64,000 bases of DNA from an uncultured Fibrobacteraceae bacterium (GCA_964549735.1 CAZJWO010000002.1:27358-91357), one strand, 5' to 3'. Counted from the stretch's first letter, positions 24,611-48,077 are shown. Program-made: numbers and translations. The notes: generated by a model not told the origin, from the letters alone.

Positions 24611-24637
24611 ACCCGGATCCGCGCGCAGCGAACGAAA

Positions 24638-24663
24638 GGCCGGACCTCTCGCGGGGTCCGGCC
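24638..24663. terminator. Bidirectional hairpin GGCCGGACC-tctcgcgg-GGTCCGGCC between convergent genes
   Basis: Perfect 9-bp GC-rich stem flanked by A-rich (CGAAA) and T-containing (TTCGCC) sequence, 28 nt after the fasciclin stop. Confidence 0.5.
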
Positions 24664-24684: not shown

Positions 24685-27600
24685 CTATCTGACGAGCACC
24701 ATCTTGCCGACGAGCGTCTGCCCGGCGGCGCGCAGCTCGTGGAAGTACACCCCGGACGCCGCCGCCCTGCCGCGGTCGTCCGTTCCGTCCCACGGGATCT
24801 CGTGCAGGCCGGCCGCGAGCCGGCCCGCGACCAGGGTCCGCACCAGCTCGCCGCGCAGGTTGAACACCTTCAGGCCGACCTCGCCGCTCTGCGGCAGGGT
24901 CAGGCGGATCGTGGTCGACGGGTTGAAGGGGTTGGGGAAATTCGTCGCCGCGAGCACGGCCTCGGGCGCCACGCCGGTCGGGATCGAGCCGCCGGCCTGG
25001 CCGAAGCTCGCCAGGATGTCCTGCAGGACGAGCGCGCGGGTCGCGACCGGGCCGTTGCCACCCCCGCCCGCTTGCTGATGAATGAACATGAAGTCATACG
25101 GCAAGTAGACGATCGTCGCGTCATCATCGGCGCGGTAGTTGCGCACCGCCGCCGCGTACGGATAGGGATCGTCGGTGCCGCCAGGCCCGGTGAAGCCTGC
25201 CAACCGCTCGGCAGTGCCCCAGGGCGCGACGGCGTCGAACGTATTGAGCCGCCGGCAGCCGCCGTAGACGATCCAGGCGTGGCTGTCGTCGAGCACGCCG
25301 TTGCCCGCGAGCGGCCGCACGAGCGGCGACGACTGATTGTCGATCAACGGCCGCAGGTTCGACGCCAGGTACGTCACGCCGAGGTAGTCTTGGCGGAACA
25401 CGAGGGCGGCGCCGTGGGTCTGGTGCAGCTCATAGGCGAGGTTGTCCCCGGTCAGGAGCGCCTTCTTGCTCCCCAGGGCGAACCAGGCCGTCAAGAGGCC
25501 GATGTCGTCGGCAGGGTTCGCGCCGTCGCCGACGCCGAGCATCCGGCCGGTTCCAGTGCTCGCTTCGCGGCGATCGCCGAACGTGACGAGCAAGACCTCA
25601 TAGCCGGCCAGTTGGGGCGCCGCGGCGCGGCCGCCGAGCGAATTGCCCATCTGTTCGCGCGCGGCCAAGGTGCGGTAGAGATCGACATCGACACCGGGAC
25701 GGTAGCCTAGCTGTGCGAGAGCATACAGCCACTCGTCCTGGCCACCGTCGGCCGGGAAGTGCTGAGACCAGGGCTTGTCCGAATTGTCCCACCACAGGAC
25801 TCCGGGCTGATCGCCCGGCTCGGCTGAACGCAACGTGGGCAGACCGCGCACGGTGAAGTTCCGGTCGAAACCGAAGAGCCGGTCGAAATCGCCGAAGTGT
25901 TCCAGATCCGCCGGCAGGCGGGTGGTGCCGACGCTGGAAGAATCATCGCCGAATATGTCCTGCGCCTCGATGTAGTAGTGCAGGATGTCGCCGGGGAAGA
26001 AGAAGTGCGCGTCCGGCAGATCGAAGTTCCAGCGATTCGGCACCAGCGAACCCTGGGCATTGTACGTTGGCAGGCCCTCCACATGGCCGCTGACGACCCC
26101 GCCAGCGAACGTCACGCCTTGCAGCACCGGATCGCTCAAGTCGCGCACCTCGTCGAAGAGCGGGTTCGTCTTCAGCGCGAAATGGAGCCGCGGCGGTCCG
26201 GCGAGCTGGAAACCCGCCCTGATCACCGCGATATCGACAGCGATCGAGTCGCCGGGCGTATTGCCGCCGTGCGACGGCGGCGAGATGTTGCTCGCCATGT
26301 CGAGCCGGATCGAGTTGGCGCCGAGTTCGACGAAGTCGAGCGTGCCGCTCGCGGGGAAGCTGTCCTGGAACAGATGGATGGCGCGCGCCGAAATGGCCGG
26401 TCCCCGGAACGGAAAGCCCAGCACCGCCACGTTGTCGAAATACGGGGCGGGAGTGCTGTCGGCGCCGATCAGCGAGGGACTCTGTCTTGCGCTGAGGGCG
26501 ACCTGCACATGGGTCCGGCCCGGCGCCAGGTAGGGGGTGATGTCGAAACGCTGGCGCTTGTACGTGGGTTCGGAGGAGAAGTAGAGCAAGCCGGTACTCA
26601 CCCAGGGAGCCGACGCGAGATCGGCCGGATCGCCGGTGTCGACCGACCTGACGGACCAGGTGTCGAAGGTCGGTGTCGTCGAGCCGCTGAAATCGATGAC
26701 GGTGTGTTGGTAGACATCGTAGGCGAGGATCAGGCCGTCGACGCTCTCGGGCACGACGAGCGGAGGGCTGATCACGCCGTTGTACAGGCGATCGTACCCG
26801 CCGAGCAGGCCGCCGGAATGATTGACGACGTACCCGCCTGGACCGTAGGTCCACGTCCAGCCGGTGGTGCCACCGGTGCCGGGCACCACGACGCCGTCGT
26901 CGATGAACGCCACCTGCGGGGAGAAATTAGCCACGCAGGGATCGAGATCCTGCAACGCGATGTACAGCGCCGCGAAATCGCCGACGCCCGGCAGATCGAC
27001 CACCCAATTGCCGAACGTCGAATTCTCGCCCGGTTGGTCGGGCTCGATCGCCTCGAAATCCTCGGTCTCGATCAACTCGCCGTCGACCCAGACGACGATG
27101 TCGTCGAGCTGCAGAGCCCCGCGCAAGGTCGGCGCCATGCCGTCCTCGTCGGAAAAGATGCCGTCCGAACGGAACCGGACCCGGAGTTCGATCCGATCGC
27201 CGGACGGGCCGCCGTAACTTGCGGGCGCATACACGAACGTCTCGTCGAACTGCGCCGTGCCCGACCCGTCGAACTCGGCAAGCACCACCCAGGCGCCGCC
27301 CTGCCGGTACTCCAGATAGCTGAAATCGTACCCGGGTTCGCTGTCATAGCAGATCGCCAGGCGCCAGCGGACCGTGCTGGCCGTGAGCGGATCGGCGACC
27401 GTATGCGCGAAGACCACCGCCTGGCGCCAGTCGTTGCCGTAACCCGGACCGGGCCACGGCGACCCGGCCGGAAAACGGCGGCCGAGCCATAGCGACCGCT
27501 GACCGCCGCATACCAGCGCGGGGTCGTCCGTCACCGACCAGTGATGGGCGGCATTGGCCGTGAAATCGACGCCAGTCCAGCCGTGCCAGGCCGGCGTTCC

Positions 27601-27804
27601 GCTCGCGGTCTGGAACCTCCCTTCGATCGTACCCGGGCCGCCCAGGAGAAAGCTCGTGTCTGGAGGTGCTTTCGCGAAGCCGACTGGCCGGCCACGCAGA
27701 TCATCGCCGGCATGGCTCGAGAGCGCGAGAGACGGCTGGCGCGCTTCGACGGTCGCCAGGCCCAGGCCGAGCATGATCAATAACGACGACGTGAAACGAT
27801 ACAT
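24685..27804 (-). CDS. Large secreted protein (1039 aa) with C-terminal T9SS-type / FlgD-Ig-like sorting domain; function unknown
   Basis: Signal peptide MYRFTSSLLIMLGLGLATVEA. C-terminus NFPNPFNPSTTIRLTLPQSGEVGLKVFNLRGELVRTL...HEIPWDGTDDRGRAAASGVYFHELRAAGQTLVGKMVLVR. Confidence 0.7.
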   Translation of the reverse strand: MYRFTSSLLIMLGLGLATVEARQPSLALSSHAGDDLRGRPVGFAKAPPDTSFLLGGPGTIEGRFQTASGTPAWHGWTGVDFTANAAHHWSVTDDPALVCGGQRSLWLGRRFPAGSPWPGPGYGNDWRQAVVFAHTVADPLTASTVRWRLAICYDSEPGYDFSYLEYRQGGAWVVLAEFDGSGTAQFDETFVYAPASYGGPSGDRIELRVRFRSDGIFSDEDGMAPTLRGALQLDDIVVWVDGELIETEDFEAIEPDQPGENSTFGNWVVDLPGVGDFAALYIALQDLDPCVANFSPQVAFIDDGVVVPGTGGTTGWTWTYGPGGYVVNHSGGLLGGYDRLYNGVISPPLVVPESVDGLILAYDVYQHTVIDFSGSTTPTFDTWSVRSVDTGDPADLASAPWVSTGLLYFSSEPTYKRQRFDITPYLAPGRTHVQVALSARQSPSLIGADSTPAPYFDNVAVLGFPFRGPAISARAIHLFQDSFPASGTLDFVELGANSIRLDMASNISPPSHGGNTPGDSIAVDIAVIRAGFQLAGPPRLHFALKTNPLFDEVRDLSDPVLQGVTFAGGVVSGHVEGLPTYNAQGSLVPNRWNFDLPDAHFFFPGDILHYYIEAQDIFGDDSSSVGTTRLPADLEHFGDFDRLFGFDRNFTVRGLPTLRSAEPGDQPGVLWWDNSDKPWSQHFPADGGQDEWLYALAQLGYRPGVDVDLYRTLAAREQMGNSLGGRAAAPQLAGYEVLLVTFGDRREASTGTGRMLGVGDGANPADDIGLLTAWFALGSKKALLTGDNLAYELHQTHGAALVFRQDYLGVTYLASNLRPLIDNQSSPLVRPLAGNGVLDDSHAWIVYGGCRRLNTFDAVAPWGTAERLAGFTGPGGTDDPYPYAAAVRNYRADDDATIVYLPYDFMFIHQQAGGGGNGPVATRALVLQDILASFGQAGGSIPTGVAPEAVLAATNFPNPFNPSTTIRLTLPQSGEVGLKVFNLRGELVRTLVAGRLAAGLHEIPWDGTDDRGRAAASGVYFHELRAAGQTLVGKMVLVR

Positions 27805-27837
27805 GGCGAACCTTTCGCCTGGCGAGATTCCGCCCGG

Positions 27838-27893
27838 TAGAAAAACAGGAGTTCCGATTCCGCAGCCACCGACACCTTAATAGACGGAACTCC
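27838..27893 (-). terminator. Stem-loop GGAGTTCCG...CGGAACTCC followed by UGUUUUUCU on the minus-strand transcript, downstream of the S8 peptidase gene. A second small UUCG-tetraloop hairpin (AGGATTA-ttcg-TAATCC) lies just 5' of it.
   Basis: 9-bp perfect stem with a U-tract on the coding (minus) strand. It sits only ~35 nt upstream of the next gene start, so it could alternatively be a 5'-UTR element. Confidence 0.4.
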
Positions 27894-27979
27894 TAATGGG
27901 ATTACGAATAATCCTATTGACTGACACCGCGCTTCGTATTGATCCCTCGGTTTCGCCGAGGGCCACGGTCAGGGCGCGC

Positions 27980-30454
27980 TCATTTCAACAGCGTGACCTT
28001 GCGCATCTGGCGCTCGCCGTCCTGCTCGAGCACGCAGAAGTAGATGCCCGACGGCGCCAGGCGCCCGCGCAGATCGGTGCCGTCCCAGTGCACGCTGTGC
28101 GCGCCCTCGCCGTGCCAGCGGTCGCGCAGGGAGCGGACCAGCACGCCGCGCACGTCGTAGATCTTCAGGCTGGCCGGCCCGCTGCGCGGCAGGTAGAAGG
28201 GGATCCAGGTGACGGGATTGAACGGGTTGGGATGGTTCTGGCCCAGCAGCAGGCCCGGCGGCAGGGCGCCGGCGGCCATGTCCTCGACGGCCGTAACGAC
28301 CCCGATCGCCCCGAGGATGCGCAGCTTGCCGAAGCCCCACCAGTCGTTGTAGACCTCGCCGGTGAACTCGTCCTGCAGGGCGCTGCTGGCCAGCCGGTCC
28401 TCGATCTCGGCGACCGGCGCGGCGGGGAAGGCTTGCCGGACGAGCGCCGCCGCCGCCGCGACGTGCGGACCCGCCGCGCTGGTGCCGCTGAACTGGCGGT
28501 AGCTGCCCAGCGGGTAGCCCTGCGCAGTCTGGTGGGACATCGTCGTGTAGACGTCGTAGTTGCCCGGCGAGACGATGTCCAGCAGGTGCTTGCCGTCGAT
28601 GCGCGCGCCACGCCCGCTGAACTCGCTGAGCGCTCCGGGCGGGATCGAACCGCCGCCCGGCCCGAACGAGCTCTCGAAGCCGCGGGTCGAATAGGACCCG
28701 TTGCAGAAGGCACTGTCGGCGGTCGCGGGCCAGGTCACGTTGCGGTCGTTCGAGACGTGGGCCGTGAACTCGGCGCCGTCGGCCCATGACGAGCGGTTGT
28801 CCGCCACGTTGCTGATCACCTCGATGGCCCCGCCGGTCGGGTTGCCGACCAGCAGCTGCCAGGCGCCGTTGACGTGGGGGTTCTGGTCGCGGTCGATGAA
28901 GAGGTCGAGCTTGTTGGTGCCGCGCGGGCTCGTGTCGCGGCTGCTCCACACGTAGTATCCGTCGACGTCCTGGGCGCCGCCGGTGATGGGGATCTGGCCG
29001 CCCAGCGGCGAGGTCAAGGTGAAGGCGAGGTCGCCGACGCCGGTGCGCCAGAGGGTCGTCCAGTAGAGCACGCCCAGGTCCTGGCCGCCGAACGGCACGG
29101 CTCCGACCGGCAGGTTCACGCTGCCGCCGGCCGGCGCGACCGCGATCGCGTGCTTGCCGCCGCGGGCGAGGTTGCCCGAGGGCGTGATCTGGATGATCGT
29201 CTCGTTCTCGATGGAGATGGCCTGCTCGTCGAGCGTCGTGCCGTCCAGGAAGCGCCAGACGAAGCCCCCGAACTCGTAGAGCATGACGTCGGCCTCGTGG
29301 GCGCGCGCCCACGGGATCAGGTACGAGATGGGCACGCCGCTGAAGAAGTAGCCGGCGAGCAGTTCGGCGTCCGGCGCGATGCCCGCGAAGCGGTGGCGCC
29401 CGCGCTCGCCGCCGGAGACGATGCCCATGACCGCGGTGCCGTGCCCGTTGACGTCGGGGTCGGAGTGGATGAGATCGACGCCGCGCACGCGCTCGACCGT
29501 GCCCGAGCCGACCGTCGCGTAGATCTTCGACGTGCCGAGCTGCACGAGGCGTTCGCCGGCGTCCAGCACGCCGTTGCCGTTCGCGTCGAGGGCGATGAAC
29601 AGAGGTTCGCCGAAGCCGGGATCGCTCTCGGCGTAGCCGGCCGCGGGGCCGTAATCGCGCACGCCGTTGCCGTTGGTGTCGGCGTAGAGCCAGTCCCAGT
29701 AGGTCTGCAGGACGCCGTCGTCGTTGGACGGCGCGCCGCCGCCCCAGACCTGCGCCCAGTCGAGGATCCAGCCGTCGCGCAGGCGCAACTCCTCGCCGGG
29801 GTCGAACACGCCGTTGCGGTCGAGATCGACGTAGGCCTGGCCGTCGACGAACACGCCCGTGCCGCTGAGGTCGTGCCAGTCGAAGGTGTCGCCGTCGGCG
29901 AAGAAGAACGACGGATGGAACACGTCGATGCCGGTGTCGAAGTCGGCGACGCGGGTCCCCTTGCCGGTCAACGGATAGCCGAAGGGGTCGGTGTAGCCCC
30001 AGGCCAGATCGGCCTCGATCTCCGGCACCGAGACGTCGAGCGTCGGGAAGACCGCGGGCGCCCAGGCGGCCTCCACGCGCAGCACCTCGCGGCGCTGCGC
30101 GAAGGCGGCGACCTCCGACCACGGGATCTGCACCGGGTAGATCGCGCGCGTGCGCGCGATCTCGCCCTTGACGCGGAAGAATCCGTAACCGCGCGCCTCG
30201 AAGTCGGCGATCTGCGCCGCCGACAGCTCGCGATCGAACGCGACTGTCACGGTCACGCGGTCCGCCTGCAGGATGTCGCGCACCTCGGCGTCGAGCGAGG
30301 CCGCCTTGTGCGGCGCGGCGCGCATCTCCAGCAGGAAGCGCAGCGACGAGTCGACCGGCGCCTGTTCGGCGGCGGTCGCGGCGACCGCTGCCGGTCCGCT
30401 GGACAAGGGCGCCAGGACCGCGAGGATCAACGCGATGACGGCGGATCGATGCAT
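27980..30454 (-). CDS. Secreted subtilisin-like serine peptidase (S8 family) with C-terminal T9SS-type / FlgD-Ig-like domain
   Basis: Signal peptide MHRSAVIALILAVLAPLSS. Catalytic triad motifs DTGIDVFHP (Asp), HGTAVMGIVSG (His), GTSAAGPHVAAAAAL (Ser). C-terminus NHPNPFNPVTWIPFYLP...HSVHWDGTDLRGRLAPSGIYFCVL...MRKVTLLK. Confidence 0.85.
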   Translation of the reverse strand: MHRSAVIALILAVLAPLSSGPAAVAATAAEQAPVDSSLRFLLEMRAAPHKAASLDAEVRDILQADRVTVTVAFDRELSAAQIADFEARGYGFFRVKGEIARTRAIYPVQIPWSEVAAFAQRREVLRVEAAWAPAVFPTLDVSVPEIEADLAWGYTDPFGYPLTGKGTRVADFDTGIDVFHPSFFFADGDTFDWHDLSGTGVFVDGQAYVDLDRNGVFDPGEELRLRDGWILDWAQVWGGGAPSNDDGVLQTYWDWLYADTNGNGVRDYGPAAGYAESDPGFGEPLFIALDANGNGVLDAGERLVQLGTSKIYATVGSGTVERVRGVDLIHSDPDVNGHGTAVMGIVSGGERGRHRFAGIAPDAELLAGYFFSGVPISYLIPWARAHEADVMLYEFGGFVWRFLDGTTLDEQAISIENETIIQITPSGNLARGGKHAIAVAPAGGSVNLPVGAVPFGGQDLGVLYWTTLWRTGVGDLAFTLTSPLGGQIPITGGAQDVDGYYVWSSRDTSPRGTNKLDLFIDRDQNPHVNGAWQLLVGNPTGGAIEVISNVADNRSSWADGAEFTAHVSNDRNVTWPATADSAFCNGSYSTRGFESSFGPGGGSIPPGALSEFSGRGARIDGKHLLDIVSPGNYDVYTTMSHQTAQGYPLGSYRQFSGTSAAGPHVAAAAALVRQAFPAAPVAEIEDRLASSALQDEFTGEVYNDWWGFGKLRILGAIGVVTAVEDMAAGALPPGLLLGQNHPNPFNPVTWIPFYLPRSGPASLKIYDVRGVLVRSLRDRWHGEGAHSVHWDGTDLRGRLAPSGIYFCVLEQDGERQMRKVTLLK

Positions 30455-30492
30455 GACGGAACACTCCCGGGTCTAGAGGCGGCGACGGGCCC

Positions 30493-30524
30493 GGGACCAT
30501 GGTCCAGGGCCCGTCGGTTGCGGT
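30493..30524. repeat. 32-bp near-perfect palindrome GACGGGCCCGGGACCATGGTCCAGGGCCCGTC between the metalloprotease-like and S8 genes
   Basis: Only two symmetric mismatches. Lies 29 nt after one stop and ~70 nt before the next start. No U-tract follows on the minus strand. Confidence 0.5.
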
Positions 30525-30552
30525 CGGTCGGAGCGCCTCGGGGCGCCGCCGC

Positions 30553-33500
30553 CTACCGGGCGAGGATCATCTTGCGGGTCGCCGTCTGGCTGCCCGCTTG
30601 CAGGCGGGCCAGATAGGCGCCCGAGGAGACGGCGCGGCCTGCGTTGTCGCGGCCGTCCCAGACCAGCGAACGTTCGCCGGCCGGCAGATCTCCGGCGAAG
30701 AGCGAACGCACCAGCCGGCCCTGCAGGTCGAGGATGTCGACCTTCGCCTGCCCGGGCTCGGCCAGGCTGAAGGACAAGGTCGTCAACGGATTGAACGGGT
30801 TCGGCGCGACCGAGCGCAGCGCGAAGGCGTGCGGCGTGTCGCCGACCGCGGTCTGGGGATCGACGACGGTCAAGGTCACCGGCACGACGTCCGCCGACGA
30901 ATCGGCGTTGCTGACGATGACCACGTACGCGGTGTAGTCGCCGGGCGTCAGGCCCGCGCTGTCGAAGCTCAGCTCGATGATCTGGCTCTGGCCTTGCCCG
31001 AGCGCGGCGGAGTCCGGCGCGATCGCCAGCCAGTCGACCGTCTCGTAGACCCAGAACGGCGCCTCGCTCTGGCCGGTGTGGAGGCCGTCGGTGCTGCCGA
31101 CGCGCAGCAGGCAGTTCTGCGACGCGGGGCCGCCCAGGACGAGCGACTGGGAGCCGTCGTTCGGCGTCGACGCGAGCAGGGTCTGCCAGCTGCCGCCGCC
31201 GTTGCGGCTCAGCTCGATCTTGACCTCGCTCAGCAGCGTGGCGTTCCACTGCACCAGGGTCGGCAGCTGGGCCGCCAGTACCTCTCCGCCGTTGGGCGCG
31301 ATGACGCCGACCTCCGGCTGCGCGACGCCGCAGCAGTCGACGTCGGCCCAGATCAGCCAGTTGCCGGCGAAGCCGTAACCGGCGACCACGTCCTGCCAGC
31401 CGGCGCCCCACTGGTTGTAGTTGACGCAGGTCGCCGGGGAGGAGTCGACCGGGATGCCCACCGGGCCGGCGGCGTTCGTGAACTCGAAGATCAGGAAGTA
31501 CTCGCTGCCCATGTCCTGGCAGGCGAAGTCGCAGGGGATCTCGATGTCGTAGTAGCCGTTGGACGGGATGCCCGAGACGGTGATCGGCGCCGAAGAAGCG
31601 AGGATGGTCCCCGGCCCTGTGCACGGTTCGCCGGCAGCGGCCAGGTGCGCGCGCACCTGCGGCGCCGAGGTCGTCTGCAGGTAGAGCACCATGTGCACGG
31701 CCCGCACGTTGAAGCCGGGGTTGCAGCCGCACGTGTAGTCCGCGGGGTCGATGCGCGTCGCGTAGGATTCGTTGCCCTCCCACCAGCTGCCGTAGTAGCC
31801 CTGGATCCCGGCCAGGTTGTTGTTGCCGAAGAGGCAGTCGCCGTCGTAGCGCATGGCGCCCTGCAGTTCAGCGGTCGACAGATCGCGGCCCAGAAGCTCG
31901 GGCAGCGTCTTGTCGACGCCGGCATGGCCGGGCTGGCCCAGCCCCGCGGCACGCTGCGCCTTGGCGACCGGCGCCTGGGTCATGACGTAGGCCGTGAAAT
32001 CGAGGATCGACCCCGCCTCGCCGCTGTTGGTGACGGTCAGATAGTCCACGTCGGTCTGGTTCGGCTCCAGCGACGGCGCGAAGGAGGCGCTGCTGAGCTG
32101 GACCGCCGGCTCGGGCTGCGGCGCGACCTTGCTGAGGGTCAGCGACCAGGTCTTGTTGTCGCCGGTGATGGCGGCGTTCGACATCACGATGCCGACGCGC
32201 TCGATCTGGGCCAGCGGCACGCTGAGCTGCACATCGGCGTCGTTGGTCGCGTTCAGGCCGACCGTCTCCAGCAGGCCGGTGCCGTCCCGCTTCTTGATGA
32301 CGGCGACCAGGCCCAGCGTGGCGGTGTCGTCGCCGTCGAACTGCACGCGCAGATGGCCGGGTTCGCCGGCCGTGAAGCCGATGCAATGGAAGTTGCGGGC
32401 CGAAAGGTGGTTCATGGTGCCGCTACTGTTGTACGGATAGCTGTTGACCGTCGTCGCCGAGCTCGTGGGATAGGACGCGGCCTCGCTGTAGCCGATACCG
32501 GGGATCGACCGCGCACCGCTCGCGTAGTTCCAGGCGGCGTACTGCGGGAAGCCCTGCGCGATCGACGAGCCATAGGCCTGCAGAATGACGTTGTAGGACA
32601 CGAGGACGGCCTGGCCCGTGTTGGTGGAGCGATGGGTCCAGAAGTCGACGATGATCTGGTTGGTGAAGGTCTCGCTCATCCAGAACTGCCAGATGCAGTC
32701 ATCGTAGGAGCCCGTGCCGCCCTGGTCGAGCGAGGACTGCGGATGGCTGATGCCGCTGCCGGAGCTGATGTAGTTGTAGTAGTCGTTGGTCGCGTCGAAG
32801 ACGATGTCCTCCATCCAGGTGGCGTCGACCTCGACCCAGCCGCCCTCGCTCCACAGCGAGGTGGCGCGCTGGGAGGCGTGCTTGAACTCGTGCGCGCAGG
32901 TGACCTTGGCCGCGCCGAGCTGGTTGCCGTCGGGATCGGTGTTCGGCGGGAAGCCGATGAAGTTCCGGTGCAGCACGATGCGGGTCCGCGTACCGGTCAC
33001 CACGGTGGTGTAGCCGTAAGCCGACATGTTCTCGAAGGAGATCTCGTAGTACGGGTTCAGCGGCGGCGCGGTGAACCCCATGTTGGTGATCTCCACCAGC
33101 CAGGAATAATCGAGGTACTCGGCGCACCGCTCGACGAAGTCCGGAATTCCATTGGCCGGATTGACATCCGTCGTCGGCACGGCGTGGGTGCCGGTCGTCT
33201 CGTACGTGAGCCGGAACCTGCCGGACGGGCTGATGTAGGTCGCCCTGCTCTCGCCGAGTTTCGGCGCCAGGTAGAGCTCGATGGTCTCGATGGTCCGCCG
33301 GTCGAGGTCGGCGCGGTCGCCTTCGAACGCGGCGATGAGCCCGGTTGCCGATTTGATCGGTGTCACGTCGTCGGGCCGGAATTCCGCCGGCAGATTATCG
33401 ATGTCGAAGACGTAATAGAACTTGTAGAGCAGCGCCTGCTCGGCATCGATCTTGCCCTCGGCCAGGGCCTCTTCGATGCGCGAGAACTGCGGCGTCGATG

Positions 33501-33564
33501 CGTGGGCGACGGCCGCGAAGAGCAGCAGAGCTGCGGCGACGGCCAGCATGAACGAACGGAACAT
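30553..33564 (-). CDS. Large secreted protein (~1003 aa) with HExxH zinc-metallopeptidase motif and C-terminal T9SS-type / FlgD-Ig-like domain
   Basis: Start at MFRSFMLAVAAALLLFAAVAHAS (AGGAGG RBS). HEFKH at VTCAHEFKHASQ. C-terminus APNPFNPLTTLSFSL...LVWDGRDNAGRAVSSGAYLARL...TRKMILAR. The 46 codons upstream in track ORF 30553..33702 are discarded. Confidence 0.7.
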   Translation of the reverse strand: MFRSFMLAVAAALLLFAAVAHASTPQFSRIEEALAEGKIDAEQALLYKFYYVFDIDNLPAEFRPDDVTPIKSATGLIAAFEGDRADLDRRTIETIELYLAPKLGESRATYISPSGRFRLTYETTGTHAVPTTDVNPANGIPDFVERCAEYLDYSWLVEITNMGFTAPPLNPYYEISFENMSAYGYTTVVTGTRTRIVLHRNFIGFPPNTDPDGNQLGAAKVTCAHEFKHASQRATSLWSEGGWVEVDATWMEDIVFDATNDYYNYISSGSGISHPQSSLDQGGTGSYDDCIWQFWMSETFTNQIIVDFWTHRSTNTGQAVLVSYNVILQAYGSSIAQGFPQYAAWNYASGARSIPGIGYSEAASYPTSSATTVNSYPYNSSGTMNHLSARNFHCIGFTAGEPGHLRVQFDGDDTATLGLVAVIKKRDGTGLLETVGLNATNDADVQLSVPLAQIERVGIVMSNAAITGDNKTWSLTLSKVAPQPEPAVQLSSASFAPSLEPNQTDVDYLTVTNSGEAGSILDFTAYVMTQAPVAKAQRAAGLGQPGHAGVDKTLPELLGRDLSTAELQGAMRYDGDCLFGNNNLAGIQGYYGSWWEGNESYATRIDPADYTCGCNPGFNVRAVHMVLYLQTTSAPQVRAHLAAAGEPCTGPGTILASSAPITVSGIPSNGYYDIEIPCDFACQDMGSEYFLIFEFTNAAGPVGIPVDSSPATCVNYNQWGAGWQDVVAGYGFAGNWLIWADVDCCGVAQPEVGVIAPNGGEVLAAQLPTLVQWNATLLSEVKIELSRNGGGSWQTLLASTPNDGSQSLVLGGPASQNCLLRVGSTDGLHTGQSEAPFWVYETVDWLAIAPDSAALGQGQSQIIELSFDSAGLTPGDYTAYVVIVSNADSSADVVPVTLTVVDPQTAVGDTPHAFALRSVAPNPFNPLTTLSFSLAEPGQAKVDILDLQGRLVRSLFAGDLPAGERSLVWDGRDNAGRAVSSGAYLARLQAGSQTATRKMILAR

Positions 33565-33758
33565 GAGATCCTCCTGAAGTTGGAAACCGGTCGCGGAGCC
33601 TCGACGAGCAACGGAACCGGGCCCCGGACCGACCCGCGGCGTTACGACGAGCCTCACTAAGATACCACGTTTTTCTTTCAAATTTATCACAAACCTACCC
33701 AAAAAGACGCGATGTCACGCCTTAATCGATATTGAATATCATCAGACGGGTGGATTCG

Positions 33759-34736
33759 CTATTCCGAATACAGCTCGATCGATCCCCCCGCGGCAGCGGA
33801 CCGGTAGCAGCCGTCGACGATCTCCAGCGTGCGCAGGCCATCGACGGCCGTGACCGGCACGGCGGCGCGGCCGAGCACGGCGTCGCGCCAGGCGGCCAGG
33901 ACCCCGGGCAGCGTCGGCGCCGCGCCGTCGTACTCCTCGCGAACTTCCTCGCGCCCCCGTCGCCAGACCAGGCTGGCGCCGAGGTAGTCGACCGCCAGCT
34001 GCCCTCGCTCGCCCACCGCCTCGAGCCAGCAGGCACGGCTCTGGGTGTACTTGCTGACCTCCAGGCTGACCCAGCAGCCGTCGTCGAGCTCGGCGCTGGC
34101 CAGGAAGAGGTCCTCGACCACCGGATTGAGCACCCGCCGCTGCCGCGAGTCGATGCGGGCGAACTCGCGGCCGGTCAGCCAACGCGCGAGATCGAAGATG
34201 TGGACCCCGGTCAGGAGCACCGAGCCGCCGACGGTCTCGGCGATCGCGCGTTGCCAGGCGAGCGTGGTCGGCTGCAACCGTTGCGCGAGACGCACGAGGT
34301 GCACCCGGCCCAGCTCGCTCCACAGCGCGCGGGCGCGTTGCAGGGCGGGATGCCAGCGCAAGGTCTGGGCGACCATCAGGCTCGGCGCCGACGGCCTCGC
34401 CGCCAGGTCCGCCAGCTCGCGCGCTTCGGCCAGGGTGCCGGTCATGGGCTTCTCCACCAGGACCGGTTTGCCTGCGGCCAGCGCCCGCGCCGCCAGTGGG
34501 AAGTGCGTGCTCGGCGGCGTGGCGATGATGACCGCGGCGATGCGGCGATCGGCGAGGAGATCGTCCGCCCGCCCGATCCAGCGGATGTCCAGCTCGGCCG
34601 CCAGGCGGCGGCCGGCTACTTCGTCGCGGCGGCACAGCGCGACGGCCCGCAGTCCGGGGACGTCCCCGCGCGCGATATGCCGCAGGTAGCGGGCGCCGTG
34701 CGTGCCGGCGCCGATGACTCCGACGTCGATGGTCAT
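33759..34736 (-). CDS. Gfo/Idh/MocA-family NAD(P)-dependent oxidoreductase
   Basis: N-terminal VGVIGAGTHGARYL Rossmann motif and EKPMTGTLAEAREL typical of the family. Start at MTIDVGV. Confidence 0.8.
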   Translation of the reverse strand: MTIDVGVIGAGTHGARYLRHIARGDVPGLRAVALCRRDEVAGRRLAAELDIRWIGRADDLLADRRIAAVIIATPPSTHFPLAARALAAGKPVLVEKPMTGTLAEARELADLAARPSAPSLMVAQTLRWHPALQRARALWSELGRVHLVRLAQRLQPTTLAWQRAIAETVGGSVLLTGVHIFDLARWLTGREFARIDSRQRRVLNPVVEDLFLASAELDDGCWVSLEVSKYTQSRACWLEAVGERGQLAVDYLGASLVWRRGREEVREEYDGAAPTLPGVLAAWRDAVLGRAAVPVTAVDGLRTLEIVDGCYRSAAAGGSIELYSE

Positions 34737-36098: not shown

Positions 36099-36950
36099 AT
36101 GCCGCGCGCCGGCGTCATCCCCTTCGCCTATCTGACTCCGATCGTCCTCTCGGCGCTGCTGCTGGCCGCCTGCGGTTCAGAGGACGATCCCGCCGCTCCG
36201 ATCGACCGCGGCGAGTACGTCCTCGTGCATCACGACGGTGATTCCCTGCGGGTGTACCTGGACGAACTGCCCAGCGTGCAGATCGACGGCCAGGATGTCA
36301 TCTATCTCGACGATTTCGTCAGCCAGGACCTGCTGCCGCCGTATCAGGCCGCCGCAATCCGGCACGACACGCGCGCTCTCTACGCCTACGAGATCGAGGG
36401 CGCCGACGGGTTCTCGGCCCATGGCAGGCGCGGCTATCCGAACAACACCTGGGACCAGATGCCTCTCGGATACCTCGTCAAGTCGACCCGGCGCGCCATC
36501 TTCCCCGACGAGGCGATCGATCTGCCGGGCGCCTACAACGTCAAGGATGTGCGCCATGTGCGCGTCTGGCGCAAGTTCGACGTCGAGATCGCAGCCGCCG
36601 ACACGACCGTGTTCTACGAGTTGCGCCGCCTGGAGGATCGGACCGCCGACATCGCCTTTCCGCCGGTGGGCGACGAACAGCACGCACAGGTCCTCGCCGC
36701 GATCCCCCTGGCCGCCTTCATCGAGCGTCTGGTGGCCGACGAGCGGCTCGACGATCCGTCCGGGCACGCCTACCGCCTGACGGCCATCGACGGCGCCGTG
36801 ACCCCGGGTCTTCTGGACTGGCAGCAGATCCAGACGGGCTACTGGCTGGTCGCGACGTCGCGCACGCGATTCACGGGTCCCGGACTGCTGGAACCGGGCT
36901 ATCGGCTGACCCATCTGCGACGGATATCGGTCGAGGCCTCCGCCCCATGA
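36099..36950 (+). CDS. Lipoprotein of unknown function
   Basis: Lipobox LLLAAC|GS after a hydrophobic N-terminus. The stop overlaps the start of the TonB-dependent receptor (ATGA). Confidence 0.5.
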   Translation: MPRAGVIPFAYLTPIVLSALLLAACGSEDDPAAPIDRGEYVLVHHDGDSLRVYLDELPSVQIDGQDVIYLDDFVSQDLLPPYQAAAIRHDTRALYAYEIEGADGFSAHGRRGYPNNTWDQMPLGYLVKSTRRAIFPDEAIDLPGAYNVKDVRHVRVWRKFDVEIAAADTTVFYELRRLEDRTADIAFPPVGDEQHAQVLAAIPLAAFIERLVADERLDDPSGHAYRLTAIDGAVTPGLLDWQQIQTGYWLVATSRTRFTGPGLLEPGYRLTHLRRISVEASAP

Positions 36951-38893
36951 GCCGGCGTGATCCCAGCCGGCTCGTCCTGGCGATCGCCCTGTTCGTGGCG
37001 GGGCCGCCGACCGCGGCCTCCGCGCGCGCGGAGGCCGGCGGGGCGACCGCCGCGCCGGACTCGCTGCAAGCACCTTACCGACTCGAGGAAGTGGTCGTCT
37101 ACGGCGAGACGCCGGCCGGGCCGGGGATGATCACGAATCTCCGCGGCGCCGAGCTCCTGGATCGCGGCGGGGGCGATGTCGCGCACCTCCTGCGTCTTGA
37201 CCCCGGGCTGGCGGTGTCGGCCGGGGGCAAGGCGGAGACCGAGACCCGCCTGCGCGGCATGCCGGCGCGCGCCACCCTGATCCTGGTCGACGGCCGGCCC
37301 GTCAACCCCGGCTACTACGGCAAGGTCGACCTGACCATGTTCTCCTCGTCGGGCCTGGCGGCCGTGCAGGTCGTCAAGGGCCCGGCTTCGGCCGCATACG
37401 GCCCCAACGCCATGGGCGGGGTCGTCAACATCATCACCCGCAGCGGCTTCGACGCGCCAGGCACCGCCTTCAGCACGCGCCTGGGAGAAGACGGGCTGCG
37501 GCGGCTGTCGCTCAGCCATGCGCAACGGCGCGGATCGCTCGCTATTTCGGTCCACGGCTACGAGCAGCACAGCGACGGCTTCCGACTGAGCGGCGACTTC
37601 TCCCCGACTTCGGTCGAAGACGGCGGCCTGCGGGCCAACAGCGGCTACCGCAAAGCGGGCGGCGGCGTGAAGGCCGGTTTCGAGCGCGGCGACCGTGACA
37701 TCTACACCGTGACGTTCGACTACCACTGGTCGCGGCGACAGATCCCGGCGACCATCTACGCCTGGGAATCCCCCACGTGGCGGGATTTTCCGGTCTGGAA
37801 GCGCTACGGCGCCTCCCTGAACAACCAGCGGCGCTTCGGTCCCGGGCTCGAGCTGGTGACGGTGCTCTACGCCGACGGGCAGCATGACCGTCTCATCGAC
37901 TACCAGAGCCGCGACCTCGCCGACGACGCGGTCAACTTCGATTCGCTCCTCAAGAACCGCGCCGTGGGAGGTTCGGTGAACCTGAGCGGCTGGGCCGGCG
38001 CGCGGCACCGCTTCCGGATGGGCCTCATCTACAGGCATGACTTCCTGGACAAGCAGCCCGACACGGACGCCGCCTGGGAACGCCACGCGCTCGGCACGGG
38101 TTCGCTGTTCCTGGAAGACCGCTACGACGTCGCCGACGCGGTCGCCTTGCTGGGCAGCCTCCAGACCTCCTGGCATGCCACCGATCGGCATGATGCGAAG
38201 CGCCTGGCGGCCAGCCCGGCGCTGTCCGTGCACTGGACGCCGCGGCGCGACACGGCGTTGCGCGCCGCGTATGGCCGGGCGACGCGCTACCCGACCCTGC
38301 ACGCGCTATACAGCCAGACGTCGGGCAACCCGGACCTCCGTCCCGAAACCGCCGCCAAGTATGAAGTCGGCCTGGAACGCCGCTTCTGGAGCGGCACGCA
38401 GCGGAGCTTGTCCGCCGAGGTCGCCTGGTTCCGCAGCGACCTCGCCGACCTCATCGATCGCCCCGCGCGCTCGCAGCAGTTCCGCAACGTGGCCTCGGCG
38501 CGGCTCGGCGGCCTCGAGACTGCGGTCCGTGCGCGCCTGGCGACCCATCTGCAGGCTGACGTCGGCTACATGTGGATCGACCGCGGCGCGACGTCGGCCG
38601 AAATGCTGCGCGAACTGGCGCCGCATCGCTTCAGCGTGGGTCTGACCGCCGATACGCCTTTCGGCACGCGGCTGCGCTATGACGTCACGGCGCAGGACGA
38701 GCGGACCACGTACGTTCCGGATCGGCGGCACGCGGCCTACCGCCTGCACAGCGTGACGATCCGGCAGTCGCTCAGCCGCGGCCTCGTGCTGCACTTCGAG
38801 GTATTCAACCTCACCGACGTCGATTTCGAGGAAGAGCTCGGGTATCCCGCGCCCGGCCGCACGATCGCTTTCGGCCTCGATTGGTGGAGATGA
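36947..38893 (+). CDS. TonB-dependent outer-membrane receptor
   Basis: Signal peptide, TonB-box-like LEEVVVYGE, plug motif VQVVKGPASAAYGPNAMGGVVNIITR, and a C-terminal beta-barrel ending in an aromatic residue (...FGLDWWR). Confidence 0.8.
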   Translation: MSRRDPSRLVLAIALFVAGPPTAASARAEAGGATAAPDSLQAPYRLEEVVVYGETPAGPGMITNLRGAELLDRGGGDVAHLLRLDPGLAVSAGGKAETETRLRGMPARATLILVDGRPVNPGYYGKVDLTMFSSSGLAAVQVVKGPASAAYGPNAMGGVVNIITRSGFDAPGTAFSTRLGEDGLRRLSLSHAQRRGSLAISVHGYEQHSDGFRLSGDFSPTSVEDGGLRANSGYRKAGGGVKAGFERGDRDIYTVTFDYHWSRRQIPATIYAWESPTWRDFPVWKRYGASLNNQRRFGPGLELVTVLYADGQHDRLIDYQSRDLADDAVNFDSLLKNRAVGGSVNLSGWAGARHRFRMGLIYRHDFLDKQPDTDAAWERHALGTGSLFLEDRYDVADAVALLGSLQTSWHATDRHDAKRLAASPALSVHWTPRRDTALRAAYGRATRYPTLHALYSQTSGNPDLRPETAAKYEVGLERRFWSGTQRSLSAEVAWFRSDLADLIDRPARSQQFRNVASARLGGLETAVRARLATHLQADVGYMWIDRGATSAEMLRELAPHRFSVGLTADTPFGTRLRYDVTAQDERTTYVPDRRHAAYRLHSVTIRQSLSRGLVLHFEVFNLTDVDFEEELGYPAPGRTIAFGLDWWR

Positions 38894-38976
38894 TGCGGTC
38901 GCAACGATCCGATAGTCCCGTCGAACAACTGGCCTCATGCGCACGCATGGCCGGCCGCCAATAGAAGGAGAATCCG

Positions 38977-39909
38977 ATGAATGGCTCGCTACGATCCGGC
39001 AAGGCGACGACGATGCTAACGGTGCTCGTCTTCGCGGCCCTCTCGCTCGGCACGCAGGCCCTGGCCGAGACCTACCTCTGCCCCGTCATCAACGACGTCT
39101 ACATCGACCAGGGCCGCCCGGACGACACCCAGGGCCACCGCACGCGGGTCCTCGTGTCGTGGCACAGCACGAACCTGGCGGCCCGCGGCCTCTGGCGATT
39201 CGACATCCCGCCGGCGATCGCCGCGGCGCAGATCGTCAGCGCCGTCATGCACGTCTCGCGCAACTCGACCGGCGGCGCCGGGACGGCGATCGACGTCGAC
39301 GTCTTCGCGTTGAACGCCCCCTTCGACGAGGCGACCGACACCTGGAACTCCCTGGCCGGCGGCAGCTTCGACACGAGCGTGGTCGCCAGCGGGACCCTGC
39401 CCGCCTGGGCGTGCCCGCCTCCCTGCACCGCCGCGATCGACCTGACCAGCCTGCTGCAGGGCAACCTGGACAAGGTGCGCGACCACGGCATCCTGATGAT
39501 GGTCCAGGACGAGGGCACCGGCGCGAACCGCAACCAGAACTTCGCCACCAAGGAGGACGTCCCGCCGTCGACGGGCGCCTACCTGGAGATCGTCGTCGCG
39601 AGCGAAGCGGATGCCGCGCCGTCCGCGCCGCTGGCGACCCTCTACCCGAACGCCCCCAACCCGTTCAATCCGCGCACGACCATCGCCTTCACGGTCGTCT
39701 CGCCGCAAGCCGTCGACTTGCGGATCTGCGATCTGGCGGGGCGCGTGGTGCGCGTATTGCGGCGAGAGAACGTCGCGGCGGGCCGGCATGAAGTCACCTG
39801 GGACGGCACGAACGCTGCGGGACTCGCCGCTCCGTCCGGAGCATATCTCGTGATTCTGACCCCGGACGCCGGCGAGCGCCGCGTCGTGAAGGCGACGTTG
39901 AGCCGCTAG
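38977..39909 (+). CDS. Secreted DNRLRE-like domain protein with C-terminal T9SS-type / FlgD-Ig-like domain
   Basis: Signal peptide. Pattern VYIDQGRPDDT...RVLVSWHS...LWRFDIP...IVSAVMHV...DVFALNAPFDEATDTWNS...NRNQNFATKE...AYLEIVV resembles the DNRLRE domain. C-terminus YPNAPNPFNPRTTIAFT...VTWDGTNAAGLAAPSGAYLVIL. Confidence 0.5.
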   Translation: MNGSLRSGKATTMLTVLVFAALSLGTQALAETYLCPVINDVYIDQGRPDDTQGHRTRVLVSWHSTNLAARGLWRFDIPPAIAAAQIVSAVMHVSRNSTGGAGTAIDVDVFALNAPFDEATDTWNSLAGGSFDTSVVASGTLPAWACPPPCTAAIDLTSLLQGNLDKVRDHGILMMVQDEGTGANRNQNFATKEDVPPSTGAYLEIVVASEADAAPSAPLATLYPNAPNPFNPRTTIAFTVVSPQAVDLRICDLAGRVVRVLRRENVAAGRHEVTWDGTNAAGLAAPSGAYLVILTPDAGERRVVKATLSR

Positions 39910-39952
39910 ACCGCGTTCGCCGCCGTGATCTCCAGCATGAAGGCGGAGCAAT

Positions 39953-41053
39953 ATGCGCGACGTGATCCGACGAAACCACGCCGCCTTCTTCGCAGGCGGC
40001 TTCATCCTGGCCGCGTTGCTCACCGCCGCCTCGTGCTGGATGGTCCAGGGCAAGAGACGACACATCGACATCGCGGCCGTCACCGGCGCCACGCCGCTCG
40101 CTCTGAAAACGGACGTCCCGGGCGGTCTGGCGCTGGAGGTGTCGGGCGACACGGAGAGGATCTACCGGTTCGGCAGCCGCGCCCTCGACGCCCTCGCGCC
40201 CGTCTATCGGCGCACGCTGGAGGTCTCGCCCGACGGAGAATTCGAGGGCAGCTATCGCTACTGCGGCATCCCCGTGCTGCACATCCTGGAAGGGGTCGTG
40301 CCGAAGAAGGCTGCGGGCGCGCCTTTCGACAGGCCTCTCGACATGATCGTGGCGATCGTCTCGCGCACGGGCGAGGAGCGGCTTTTCAGCTATGGCGAGT
40401 TGACCATGGCCGATGACAGCGAACCCGTCATGCTCGCCTACGCGCGGTCCGAGCTGCTGCCCGCGAAGGCCGGCGCGGAAGAGGCGTTCGAGTGGAACCG
40501 GCGCCGGGGTCCGCTCGCCGGATTGCGGCTGGTCTGCCCGGGCGACCGGGACACCGGCCGCTACCTCGACGACGTGGTGCGGATCGTGCTCGCCGAACCC
40601 GTCGTGGACGTCCCGGGTCTGCCCGAGATGAAGCGCGGCGAACGCTGCGTCGCCGACTCCGTCGCGGTCGTCAGCGGGAGCGTCGCGCGCCCCCTCGCGC
40701 TCGACGGGGTCGAGACCGCGGCCGTCGGCGGCTGGGTACGCACCGGCCATGGCCTGGGCTTCAAGGGGATCTCCGCCGCTTCCGGGTACGACCTGCGCGC
40801 GTTATTGCGGCGCAACTTCCCGGGCGCCGGCGAAGATCAGTTCTACCTGTTCGTGGCCTGCGACGGCTACCGGGCGATCTTCTCCGGACGCGAGATCTTC
40901 GGCACCGAGGCGGGGCGGCGCATGCTGCTGATCGAGGAGATGGACGGACAGCCCCGGCCAGGGGGGGCCAGCCTGGGGCCGGTGAAGGACTACTTCGTGG
41001 ACCGCGTTCTGAGGGCGGTGACGCACATCGTCATGCTCGAGGACGTCCGTTAG
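39953..41053 (+). CDS. Membrane-anchored hypothetical protein with two tandem ~150-aa repeats resembling the molybdopterin-dependent-oxidoreductase (Oxidored_molyb / MOSC-like) fold
   Basis: N-terminal TM helix. An internal duplication is visible by eye (YCGIPVLHILEGVVP...DMIVAIVSRTGEERLFSYGELTM...PVMLAYA...LRLVCPGDRDTGRYLDDVVRIVL versus FKGISAASGYDLRALL...FYLFVACDGYRAIFSGREIFG...RMLLIEEMDG...GPVKDYFVDRVLRAVTHIVML). Confidence 0.4.
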   Translation: MRDVIRRNHAAFFAGGFILAALLTAASCWMVQGKRRHIDIAAVTGATPLALKTDVPGGLALEVSGDTERIYRFGSRALDALAPVYRRTLEVSPDGEFEGSYRYCGIPVLHILEGVVPKKAAGAPFDRPLDMIVAIVSRTGEERLFSYGELTMADDSEPVMLAYARSELLPAKAGAEEAFEWNRRRGPLAGLRLVCPGDRDTGRYLDDVVRIVLAEPVVDVPGLPEMKRGERCVADSVAVVSGSVARPLALDGVETAAVGGWVRTGHGLGFKGISAASGYDLRALLRRNFPGAGEDQFYLFVACDGYRAIFSGREIFGTEAGRRMLLIEEMDGQPRPGGASLGPVKDYFVDRVLRAVTHIVMLEDVR

Positions 41054-44516: not shown

Positions 44517-44852
44517 GTGGTCGCAAGCATTCACGCCGTTCGCCAGCGTGCCGGCGAGGAACGCCGCCGCCAGCTCTTCCGGCGTCTCGACCGGAGCGCC
44601 AACGACGACTCGCACCCCGTGCCCCGCGAACAGCTCTTGGGCGCGCCGGCCCATGCCGCCGGCGATGACGACAGCCGCTCCTCGCTCCGCGAGCCACGCC
44701 GGCAACAGACCCGGTTGATGGGCCGGCGCGGCGACGTCTTGCCGTGCGGTGATCATCCCGGTGGCATCGTCGACGTCGACCATCGCGAAGCGCTCGCAAT
44801 GGCCGAAATGCTGAGCCAGGCGTCCGCTGGCGAGGGGAATCGCGATCCTCAT
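44517..44852 (-). CDS. NifX/NifB-like dinitrogenase FeMo-cofactor-binding-domain protein (PF02579-type), copy 1
   Basis: MRIAIPLASGRLAQHFGHCERFAMVDVD...VIAGGMGRRAQELFAGHGVRVV. ~111 aa. Start overlaps the stop of the next gene. Confidence 0.65.
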
Positions 44853-45766: not shown

Positions 45767-45773
45767 GGCGCCG

Positions 45774-46619: not shown

Positions 46620-46680
46620 GCGCGTTCCTCATGATCACCGCGCAGCGCCGTGAAGAGGCGGGCCTGGCTGGCGGGAGCGG

Positions 46681-47046
46681 TCATACCCAGTGGTCCTCGA
46701 CGTCCGCCGCGGCGGCCTCGGTCAACTCGCCCGCACGGTACAGGGCGAGGGCGGCCGCCACCGTCGGCGCCTCCGTCACGAAGACCCTGATTCCGGCTGC
46801 CGCGAGCACGCGGAAGGCCTTCGGACCGCAGTGGCCGGTCACGACGGCCTGCACACCTAGGCGCGCCACGGTCTGCGCCGCCTGGATGCCGGCGCCCTGC
46901 GCCGCCTCGAGGCTCTGACGATTGTCGACCGTGGTGAACGTGTCCTGGTCCAGGTCATAGACGAGGAATCCGGCGGCGCGGCCGAACCTGGGGTCCAGCG
47001 GCGCTTGCAGATCCCGTCCCGCGGTCGTGAGCGCGATCGTCATCAT
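46681..47046 (-). CDS. NifX/NifB-like FeMo-cofactor-binding-domain protein, copy 2
   Basis: MTIALTTAGRDLQAPLDPRFGRAAGFLVYDLD...VVTGHCGPKAFRVLAAAGIRVF. Confidence 0.65.
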   Translation of the reverse strand: MMTIALTTAGRDLQAPLDPRFGRAAGFLVYDLDQDTFTTVDNRQSLEAAQGAGIQAAQTVARLGVQAVVTGHCGPKAFRVLAAAGIRVFVTEAPTVAAALALYRAGELTEAAAADVEDHWV

Positions 47047-47128
47047 GCTGCCCTTCCGGACGCCTCGGCGCGACGCGTCCAACCGTCGCCTGTCGCGCGT
47101 CGTGAAGCGGCGCGCTTGCGGCGGCCGT

Positions 47129-47880: not shown

Positions 47881-47928
47881 CGCGTCCCGCCTCGCTTCGG
47901 TGCCGGGCCCGACGCCCTCCGTGGACAT

Positions 47929-47944
47929 TGCAACTGGCAGGCCA
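47929..47944 (-). promoter_or_regulatory. Sigma-54 (-24/-12) promoter TGGCCTG-CCAG-TTGCA, ~50 nt upstream of the third NifX-like gene
   Basis: Minus-strand sequence CTGGCCTGCCAGTTGCAA matches TGGCACG-N4-TTGCW with GG and GC spaced exactly 10 nt apart. A sigma-54 activator gene is adjacent. Confidence 0.6.
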
Positions 47945-48023: not shown

Positions 48024-48077
48024 GACCCAAGTGGTGCATTATAGCTACGATATCGCGGGGTTACTGACGCGGCAGCG

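Follow-up and report, generated by a model that had tools for sequence, protein, structure and literature searches.

Three consecutive genes for large, probably secreted proteins with a shared FlgD_ig-like C-terminal domain resembling those of type A in type IX secretion, in an uncultured bacterium

Results

Genes A, B and C and their shared C-terminal tail

We analysed a stretch of 64,000 nucleotides from an uncultured Fibrobacteraceae bacterium (GCA_964549735.1, CAZJWO010000002.1:27358-91357), hereafter called the window, in which three consecutive minus-strand genes between positions 24,685 and 33,564, named A, B and C, encode large proteins ending in the same tail of about 90 residues. Identification of this tail as an FlgD_ig-like subtype of the type A C-terminal domain (CTD) of the system for type IX secretion (T9SS) is well supported. 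The best explanation is that A, B and C are probably transcribed separately and encode large proteins, extracellular or located at the cell surface, which a bacterium of the Fibrobacteres–Chlorobi–Bacteroidetes (FCB) group probably exports via Sec and then via a translocon of the T9SS type. The finding is real but ordinary: the tail represents the usual route by which Bacteroidetes relatives send enzymes to the surface.

A preliminary description of the window had proposed three minus-strand open reading frames (ORFs), each with a Sec signal peptide and the same C-terminal domain of about 80 residues. Reading of the ORFs recovered all three at identical coordinates and lengths, and products of 1039, 824 and 1003 amino acids were also called independently on the source contig in a metagenome assembly (ENA ERZ16299682, NODE_137, 148 kb). 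The G+C content of the window is approximately 65–72% along its whole length; at third codon positions it reaches 0.86–0.96 in A, B and C, which sets them apart as genuine genes from the numerous spurious ORFs that such GC-rich DNA contains. The tail-bearing genes are as follows (scores in bits).

24685–27804, minus strand: gene A, 1039 aa, with signal peptide, body and C-terminal tail
24688–24957, minus strand: tail of A (aa 950–1039), a 7-strand Ig-like C-terminal domain; FlgD_ig 39.1, TIGR04183 22.3
27980–30454, minus strand: gene B, a secreted subtilase of family S8 (824 aa) with tail; Peptidase_S8 82.8
27983–28252, minus strand: tail of B (aa 735–824); FlgD_ig 28.6, TIGR04183 21.2; also found by the tail model
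30553–33564, minus strand: gene C, 1003 aa from an ATG after AGGAGG, secreted HExxH zinc metalloprotease of the MXAN_6640 family with tail
30556–30825, minus strand: tail of C (aa 914–1003); FlgD_ig 45.4, TIGR04183 30.2; seven strands at 915–1001
38977–39909, plus strand: gene D, 310 aa, with signal peptide, DNRLRE/CBM96 domain (NF033679 55.7, cut-off 34) and tail at 39640–39906; FlgD_ig 41.7, TIGR04183 22.5
2–1648, minus strand: N-terminal part of a further tailed gene (872 aa; weak CBM_56 and FlgD_ig) in the gene table of the source contig, its tail lying just outside the window

Inspection by eye and hydropathy revealed signal-peptide-like N-termini in A, B, C and D. Those of A, B and C consist of a basic residue, a hydrophobic core of 12 residues (mean Kyte-Doolittle value 2.5–3.0) and an AxA-like (small-x-small) site, in line with the Sec signal peptides proposed for them.

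Over their final 90 residues, A, B, C and D align without internal gaps and share 39–46% pairwise identity; the tail claimed for A, B and C, and likewise for the DNRLRE protein D, is indeed common to them. All four exceed the gathering score of 27 bits for Pfam FlgD_ig (PF13860), with E-values of 1e-6 to 8e-12, well past what chance would give. The result for TIGR04183 (T9SS type A, cut-off 23 bits), the second model with which the tails were to be compared, was divided: C passed, and A, B and D fell short by 0.5–1.8 bits. With PF18962 (Por_Secre_tail, cut-off 27 bits), C scored 19.2 and A 15.9 bits. All 45 A-family members scanned matched both FlgD_ig and PF18962 (E ≤ 0.05, best E 5e-7). When the window was searched in six-frame translation with a hidden Markov model (HMM) built from the four tails, these four copies, the fourth being that of D, were the only ones found. 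The consensus PNPFNP...VRGxLVR...WDGxD..G..VASGVYF...KMxLVK is very uniform.

With the left flank of the contig included, six tailed genes lie within approximately 70 kb. Two of them extend into or lie on the contig just left of the window (L006:13075-17334): the 872-aa CBM_56-like gene and, following it, a gene for a 509-aa glucose/sorbosone dehydrogenase-like (GSDH) protein with an FlgD_ig domain.

Position, modularity, fold and conserved residues of the tail

For a detailed characterization of the tail we used a comparison set of 81 loci (1.24 Mb) taken from the contig of the window and from related genomes. Among the 141 significant tail matches in this set, 140 end within five residues of a stop codon, and all four window tails reach the stop codon. 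Outside the A family, the tail is carried by S8, M1, M6, M14, M36, GH57, LVIVD, CBM56, GSDH and DNRLRE proteins. This diversity of hydrolases fits the known cargo of the T9SS, which comprises glycosidases, serine peptidases and metallopeptidases (PMC11205867).

Solved T9SS CTDs are Ig-like β-sandwiches of seven strands (PMC11285876). In AlphaFold2 models of A and C (pLDDT 85.8 and 82.6, respectively), DSSP counted seven C-terminal β-strands at residues 952–1037 of A and 915–1001 of C. Secretion in Porphyromonas gingivalis requires a Gly at the start of β4, in the β3–β4 loop of the CTD, and a C-terminal strand with a conserved Lys (PMC11285876). Among 140 tails, the Gly of 'VRGxLV' at the start of β4 is at least 90% conserved, 122 have a Lys at position −6, midway along the last strand, and 131 end in K or R. 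G985 of A is invariant in 62 homologues and K998 is invariant in the C family. Taken together, fold, C-terminal position, Gly and Lys motifs and modularity suggest that the tail is a sorting domain. This supports the earlier proposal of a T9SS type A-like domain with FlgD-Ig fold that is carried by secreted proteins unrelated to one another, in a high-GC lineage not belonging to the Bacteroidota.

Other classes of C-terminal signal were compared as well. Sortase and exosortase signals consist of a short motif followed by a transmembrane helix at the C-terminus and a cluster of basic residues. None of the short sorting signals LPXTG/sortase, PEP-CTERM/exosortase or GlyGly-CTERM was matched by the tails, which have no hydrophobic C-terminal helix and end in an amphipathic β-strand of the form V-x-K-M-x-L-V-K/R. 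A flagellar identity was rejected: the FlgD equivalog models gave 16–35 bits with cut-offs of 230–383, the match being limited to the Ig-like part (positions ~95–160 of ~200–290). Since A–D have signal peptides and enzyme bodies and match FlgD models via the tail only, they are not flagellar proteins. A connection of T9SS CTDs with the FlgD_ig superfamily has been published (PMC11611037).

In the literature the T9SS is assigned to the FCB superphylum (PMC11205867), and several FCB phyla beyond the Bacteroidota are listed as possibly having it (PMC11285876, 2024). Judging from the names on the homologues of A, the nearest named relatives of the window bacterium are Candidatus Krumholzibacteriota, an FCB phylum, and we therefore read the bacterium as a Krumholzibacteriota-like FCB member. 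In the NCBI pipeline, homologues of both A and C carry the name 'T9SS type A sorting domain-containing protein'. The idea of a sorting tail is thus already captured by automated annotation and is not new.

T9SS machinery and alternative roles of the tail

In the proposed route, A, B and C would cross the inner membrane by Sec via the N-terminal signal peptide and fold in the periplasm. They would then be recognized via the Ig-like C-terminal domain of about 90 residues, the FlgD_ig-like subtype of the type A CTD, and pass through an outer-membrane translocon of the T9SS type, followed by release or attachment to the cell surface. Use of the T9SS by A, B and C, and cleavage or anchoring of the tail, are inferred.

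Several observations weigh against this route. A Pfam/NCBIfam scan of every sizeable ORF or of the gene table found no T9SS core gene (SprA, PorV, PorU, GldK/L/M/N or PorP) in the window or in approximately 6 kb of its left flank, and no paper in the library searched describes a T9SS in Krumholzibacteriota. Three of the four tails lie under the TIGR04183 cut-off, and FlgD_ig scores exceed those of the T9SS models throughout. PDB sequence searches match flagellar FlgD, with E-values of 5e-5 to 2e-3 for single proteins and down to 3e-8 for family profiles; PorZ was matched by the family profiles only, at non-significant values (E 0.07 and 0.27). Lastly, the assignment of the signal peptides relied on inspection and hydropathy only.

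The search for machinery was extended to the related loci. No FGE/GldK-like genes and no SprA-sized ORFs were found in the 1.24 Mb. In an NCBIfam scan, 88 signal-peptide-like ORFs of these loci matched 333 families. A homologue search with the FGE domain of the window returned generic FGE proteins only, and the neighbourhood of a 445-aa candidate contained no gldKLMN operon. For the window organism the DNA covered amounts to less than 2% of one genome, and relatives contribute scattered pieces of 20 kb, so that the absence of core genes weighs little.

It might be argued that the tail is merely a structural or binding Ig-like module of the FlgD_ig type, serving for instance in attachment to polysaccharide or envelope, and not a secretion signal; the proteins would then stay in the periplasm or leave it by another path such as type II secretion. 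The preference for FlgD_ig over the T9SS models, the FlgD matches in the PDB and the absence of T9SS core genes from the DNA examined all speak for such a module, as does an Ig-like copy of the same superfamily inside the FGE protein described below, where a role as tail is impossible. However, a binding module need not be terminal, yet nearly every copy in the comparison set ends at a stop codon. Moreover, the Gly of the β3–β4 loop and the Lys of the last strand, both required in P. gingivalis, are conserved, and the tail occurs on many unrelated hydrolases, as is usual for sorting domains. We therefore regard a purely structural module as improbable.

The tail might also be the sorting signal of a lineage-specific outer-membrane export or anchoring system other than the canonical T9SS. 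This would agree with the lack of core genes in the DNA examined and with the tails forming a distinct, tightly conserved subtype mostly under the TIGR04183 cut-off; furthermore, CTDs are not exchangeable even between two species of Bacteroidia (PMC11285876). On the other hand, the small and scattered DNA sample deprives the missing genes of most of their meaning, fold, motifs, Sec dependence and cargo spectrum of the tailed proteins all match the T9SS, and the short tripartite sortase or exosortase signals are absent, the tails ending in an amphipathic β-strand. A separate system of this kind appears quite improbable, and export through a T9SS-type translocon remains the preferred explanation.

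A diverged Ig-like domain in the FGE protein

The preliminary description had also placed an internal copy of the tail near the N-terminus of an FGE/DUF1566 protein. This was not supported, the likeness being weak, below threshold and not C-terminal.

56524–56676, minus strand: internal Ig-like domain (aa 155–205) of the FGE-sulfatase/Lcl_C protein; TIGR04183 21.0 bits, E 2.4e-4

With the HMM of the four tails this domain reached 4.5 bits only, and Pfam at E ≤ 0.001 reported no FlgD_ig or other tail-type domain in the protein. The domain belongs to the same Ig-like superfamily as the tails but has diverged; its resemblance to T9SS CTDs is weak, and it is not a tail. The secreted protein itself (54427–57066, minus strand, 879 aa) contains, besides this domain, an FGE-sulfatase domain and two Lcl_C/DUF1566 domains, and adjoins two hybrid histidine kinases. 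The best NCBIfam matches of its FGE domain are PvdO (86 bits) and GldK (51 bits), both far under the cut-offs.

Protein B is an S8 subtilase

Protein B, described earlier as an S8 subtilase, matches Pfam PF00082 in two stretches with 82.8 bits (cut-off 21.8). The catalytic residues follow in the order Asp-His-Ser within canonical motifs, D173 in DFDTG, H338 in NGHGT and S659 in SGTSAA, and N428 is a candidate for the oxyanion Asn. The spacer between His and Ser is long (approximately 320 residues). The best PDB sequence match is Vpr (8jmw, 5.8e-11). These features bear out the assignment, and B looks like an active S8 serine endopeptidase. Between the catalytic Asp and His lies an insert of approximately 130 residues (aa 210–337; 29440–29830, minus strand) with three DxNGNG(V)xD loops, at 210, 259 and 290, which look calcium-binding-like and may act as such.

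Protein C is a putative HExxH zinc metalloprotease

Protein C had been described as HExxH metalloprotease-like, and the family models agree: NF045524 (MXAN_6640 family putative metalloprotease) is matched with 158.4 bits (cut-off 140) over model positions 2–288 of 290. The zinc motif HEFKH lies at residues 225–229 within a catalytic domain of approximately 120–393, which is followed by a β-sandwich, PapD/ASH-like Ig domains and the tail. HEFKH is invariant in 40 homologues of C, as are H225, E226, H229, Q232, E240, D247 and E252. The fold of the model is closest to the M30 peptidase lugdulysin and to M30 and M1 gluzincins. C looks like an active gluzincin-type zinc endopeptidase of the MXAN_6640 family with an M30-like fold. 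Relatives of C reach 75% identity, those on contigs of 0.46–4.7 Mb 55–61%, and some are named 'T9SS type A sorting domain-containing protein' or 'MXAN_6640 family putative metalloprotease' by NCBI.

Protein A and its family

The model of A comprises a putative jelly-roll (MAM/CBM-like) domain at ~50–250, a β-rich region at ~255–650, a GATase1/ThuA-like α/β domain at ~660–940 and the tail. Outside the tail, none of the 45 family members scanned has a Pfam match in its body, in agreement with the earlier statement that the protein has no recognizable catalytic motif; this includes all Pfam peptidase families. PDB sequence and profile searches with A gave FlgD as the one significant match, via the tail. 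Because a catalytic signature is lacking, a surface protein with a binding or structural role is a likelier identity for A than a protease.

Three specific identities were rejected. For PorU, NF033707 reached 25.6 bits with a cut-off of 420 and in the tail only; PorU (6za2) was the top Foldseek match (E 9e-9), but with a TM-score of 0.09. The model of an M6-like inactivated T9SS protein, NF052323, likewise matched the tail only (23.6 bits, cut-off 600). PorZ (NF052228) also matched A through the tail and not over the full length. A cysteine peptidase or amidotransferase, which would need a Cys-His-Glu triad, found no support: C850 is invariant, but the GATase1-like domain holds no invariant His.

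Homologues of A are proteins of approximately 1000 residues, nearly all with the same tail, and those with an organism name are Candidatus Krumholzibacteria. A scan with one genome per species yielded 75 A-related loci whose titles are mostly Krumholzibacteriota, with some 'uncultured Fibrobacteraceae' or 'bacterium' and one Gemmatimonadales; the best identity was 47%. A search through all of 1.84 billion representatives gave 370 relatives at E ≤ 1e-30, corresponding to about 370 at 50% clustering. Relatives of A often stand in tandem arrays, and the family is rich in paralogues. The 81 loci of the comparison set hold 116 A-family ORFs. At one of these loci (L004:1-12994, GCA_016277765.1), five A-family paralogues of 992–1013 aa are arranged head-to-tail.

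Residues ~272–948 of A recur inside longer proteins of 1500–2857 aa (P0371, P0372, P0410, P0411, P0447, P0452 and P0474), sometimes near the C-terminus. This core (aa 272–948) is a portable module, and the N-terminal jelly-roll is exchangeable.

At least 12 Krumholzibacteriota genomes (L036:1-22948; L047, L063, L061, L010, L042, L009, L039, L007, L049, L067 and L076) carry one A orthologue in a conserved same-strand block with the order corC, DUF502, mgtE, recO, glyQ, glyS, A, lipoprotein (~800–930 aa), lipoprotein (~840–880 aa), propeller (~790 aa) and ppdK. The two lipoproteins belong to no family, the second being weakly similar to the first. The BNR/GH74-like propeller of ~790 aa has a classical T9SS-like CTD and matches only positions 663–757 of the PorZ model; identification as PorZ was rejected, its body matching GH74-type BNR propellers instead. 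A, the two lipoproteins and the propeller may form a conserved surface complex.

For the A family, confined to the lineage of the Krumholzibacteriota, a new activity or a role in assembly is conceivable, possibly in a surface complex with its block neighbours that is specific to the phylum, and the family would then not be inert cargo. Many invariant acidic residues and the invariant C850 in the GATase1-like domain, together with an orthologue fixed in the core genome between glyS and the genes of the two lipoproteins and the propeller, prompted this idea, which we consider rather unlikely and put forward tentatively.

Transcription units and gene order

Hairpins and palindromes had been reported between the genes, and structures of this kind are present in both spacers and after A.

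30484–30515, minus strand: 32-nt palindrome within the C–B spacer of 98 nt, with a stem of 10 + 4 bp, a possible terminator without U-run
27839–27962, minus strand: structures in the 175-nt B–A spacer, namely a 7-bp GC hairpin at 27944–27962, 17 nt after the stop codon of B, and a second hairpin at 27839–27893, then UGUUUUUCU
24631–24663, minus strand: intrinsic-terminator-like hairpin after A with 11-bp stem, 8-nt loop and TTTCGTT
33565–33780, minus strand: region upstream of C with GC 0.52 (window ~0.70), A/T-rich stretches and an AGGAGG ribosome-binding site, a probable promoter region

The B–A spacer has a G+C content of 0.57, lower than the window, and may hold the promoter of A. The stem after A is one of 12 perfect stems of at least 9 bp in the window, which occur there at approximately twice the frequency in shuffled sequences. 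Folding energies of the spacers were not significantly low compared with shuffles (z = −1.2 to −1.7), and a simple scan for consensus terminators found nothing in the spacers. The arrangement fits separate transcription of A, B and C; independent termination at the hairpins appears plausible, the evidence being soft.

Comparison with other genomes gave firmer evidence. Apart from two loci from the contig of the window itself, no relative of B or C was found in the related loci searched (phmmer E < 1e-5). Homologues of A adjoin a GH38 mannosidase or each other, stand alone, or lie between glyS and lipoprotein genes, and a C orthologue (61% identical) is flanked by unrelated genes. A conserved C-B-A operon was therefore rejected, and the three genes do not form a dedicated protease operon. 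The earlier notion of a dedicated extracellular protease battery is not supported: no test identified A as a peptidase, and the order C-B-A occurs neither in any of the 75 related loci nor around the closest orthologue of C that lies on a long contig.

A looser version, in which A, B and C are one co-regulated battery and A assists B and C as an accessory protein or by binding substrate, could draw on the common strand, the short spacers, the common tail and a tailed S8 gene directly upstream of an A homologue (L024), but it is very unlikely given the hairpin in each spacer, the low-GC, promoter-like regions between B and A and upstream of C, and the unrelated surroundings of A and C homologues in other genomes, where B and C relatives are missing beside A.

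Other genes of the window

Gene D belongs to a same-strand run (36099–41053, plus strand) comprising a 283-aa protein, a TonB-dependent receptor, the tailed DNRLRE/CBM96 protein D and a 366-aa protein. The start of the TonB-dependent receptor overlaps the preceding stop codon by 4 nt, and neither the 283-aa nor the 366-aa protein has a Pfam or NCBIfam match.

A minus-strand cluster at 4162–8676 encodes a SET-domain protein of 118 aa, a PP-binding carrier of 83 aa, a 691-aa amidotransferase resembling asparagine synthase and a 562-aa AMP-binding enzyme, and looks like a small carrier-protein-dependent amide-forming pathway. At 44849–48039 (minus strand), two adjoining MinD/ParA-type ATPases with inserted 4Fe-4S ferredoxin motifs and a protein resembling the C-terminal part of MrpORP lie beside a sigma-54 activator. 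The proteins at 57184–63265 have no exact match on the 148-kb ENA contig, and two of them are present only on a 4-kb Logan contig. Public assemblies may differ in this region, or gene starts may have been called differently.

Discussion

Findings on tail-bearing proteins help to predict which uncultured FCB bacteria degrade extracellular protein and polymers, and the uniform CTD subtype offers clean material for studying what the translocon recognizes. The mechanism itself is textbook knowledge and already present in automated annotation; what interest remains attaches to the A family with its many paralogues.

Comparison with known systems

The closest parallel is T9SS type A cargo such as RgpB of P. 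gingivalis or the KLIKK peptidases of Tannerella forsythia, mirolase among them. The likeness lies in the Sec signal, a catalytic or binding body and a 7-strand Ig-like terminus of ~70–100 residues with Gly and Lys. Cargo of the Bacteroidota T9SS consists largely of serine peptidases and metallopeptidases, and mirolase, like B, is a CTD-bearing serine peptidase (PMC11285876). In contrast to Bacteroidota cargo, the proteins described here come from a non-Bacteroidota host of approximately 70% GC, score higher with FlgD_ig than with TIGR04183 or Por_Secre_tail and follow a very uniform consensus; machinery and tail cleavage are predictions here. The Ig-like domain of FlgD, the flagellar hook-capping protein, is the best Pfam and PDB sequence match of the tail and has the same fold, whereas bodies and signal peptides differ.

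With S8 subtilases carrying inserted domains, such as Vpr, B shares the order Asp-His-Ser and the motifs DTG, HGT and GTSxA. Compared with Vpr-type subtilases, the insert between Asp and His with its three DxNGNG loops and the long distance from His to Ser are features of its own. C resembles the MXAN_6640 family (NF045524), for which no activity has been shown, and the M30 fold of hyicolysin and lugdulysin, but differs by an identity of 11% to lugdulysin and by approximately 520 extra residues of β-sandwich and PapD-like domains plus the tail. A shares 10–13% sequence identity with GATase1-like and ThuA-like proteins (2gk3, 3rht and 4jqs) and with immune inhibitor A (M6) in its non-catalytic domains. 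The combination of domains in A is absent from any curated family.

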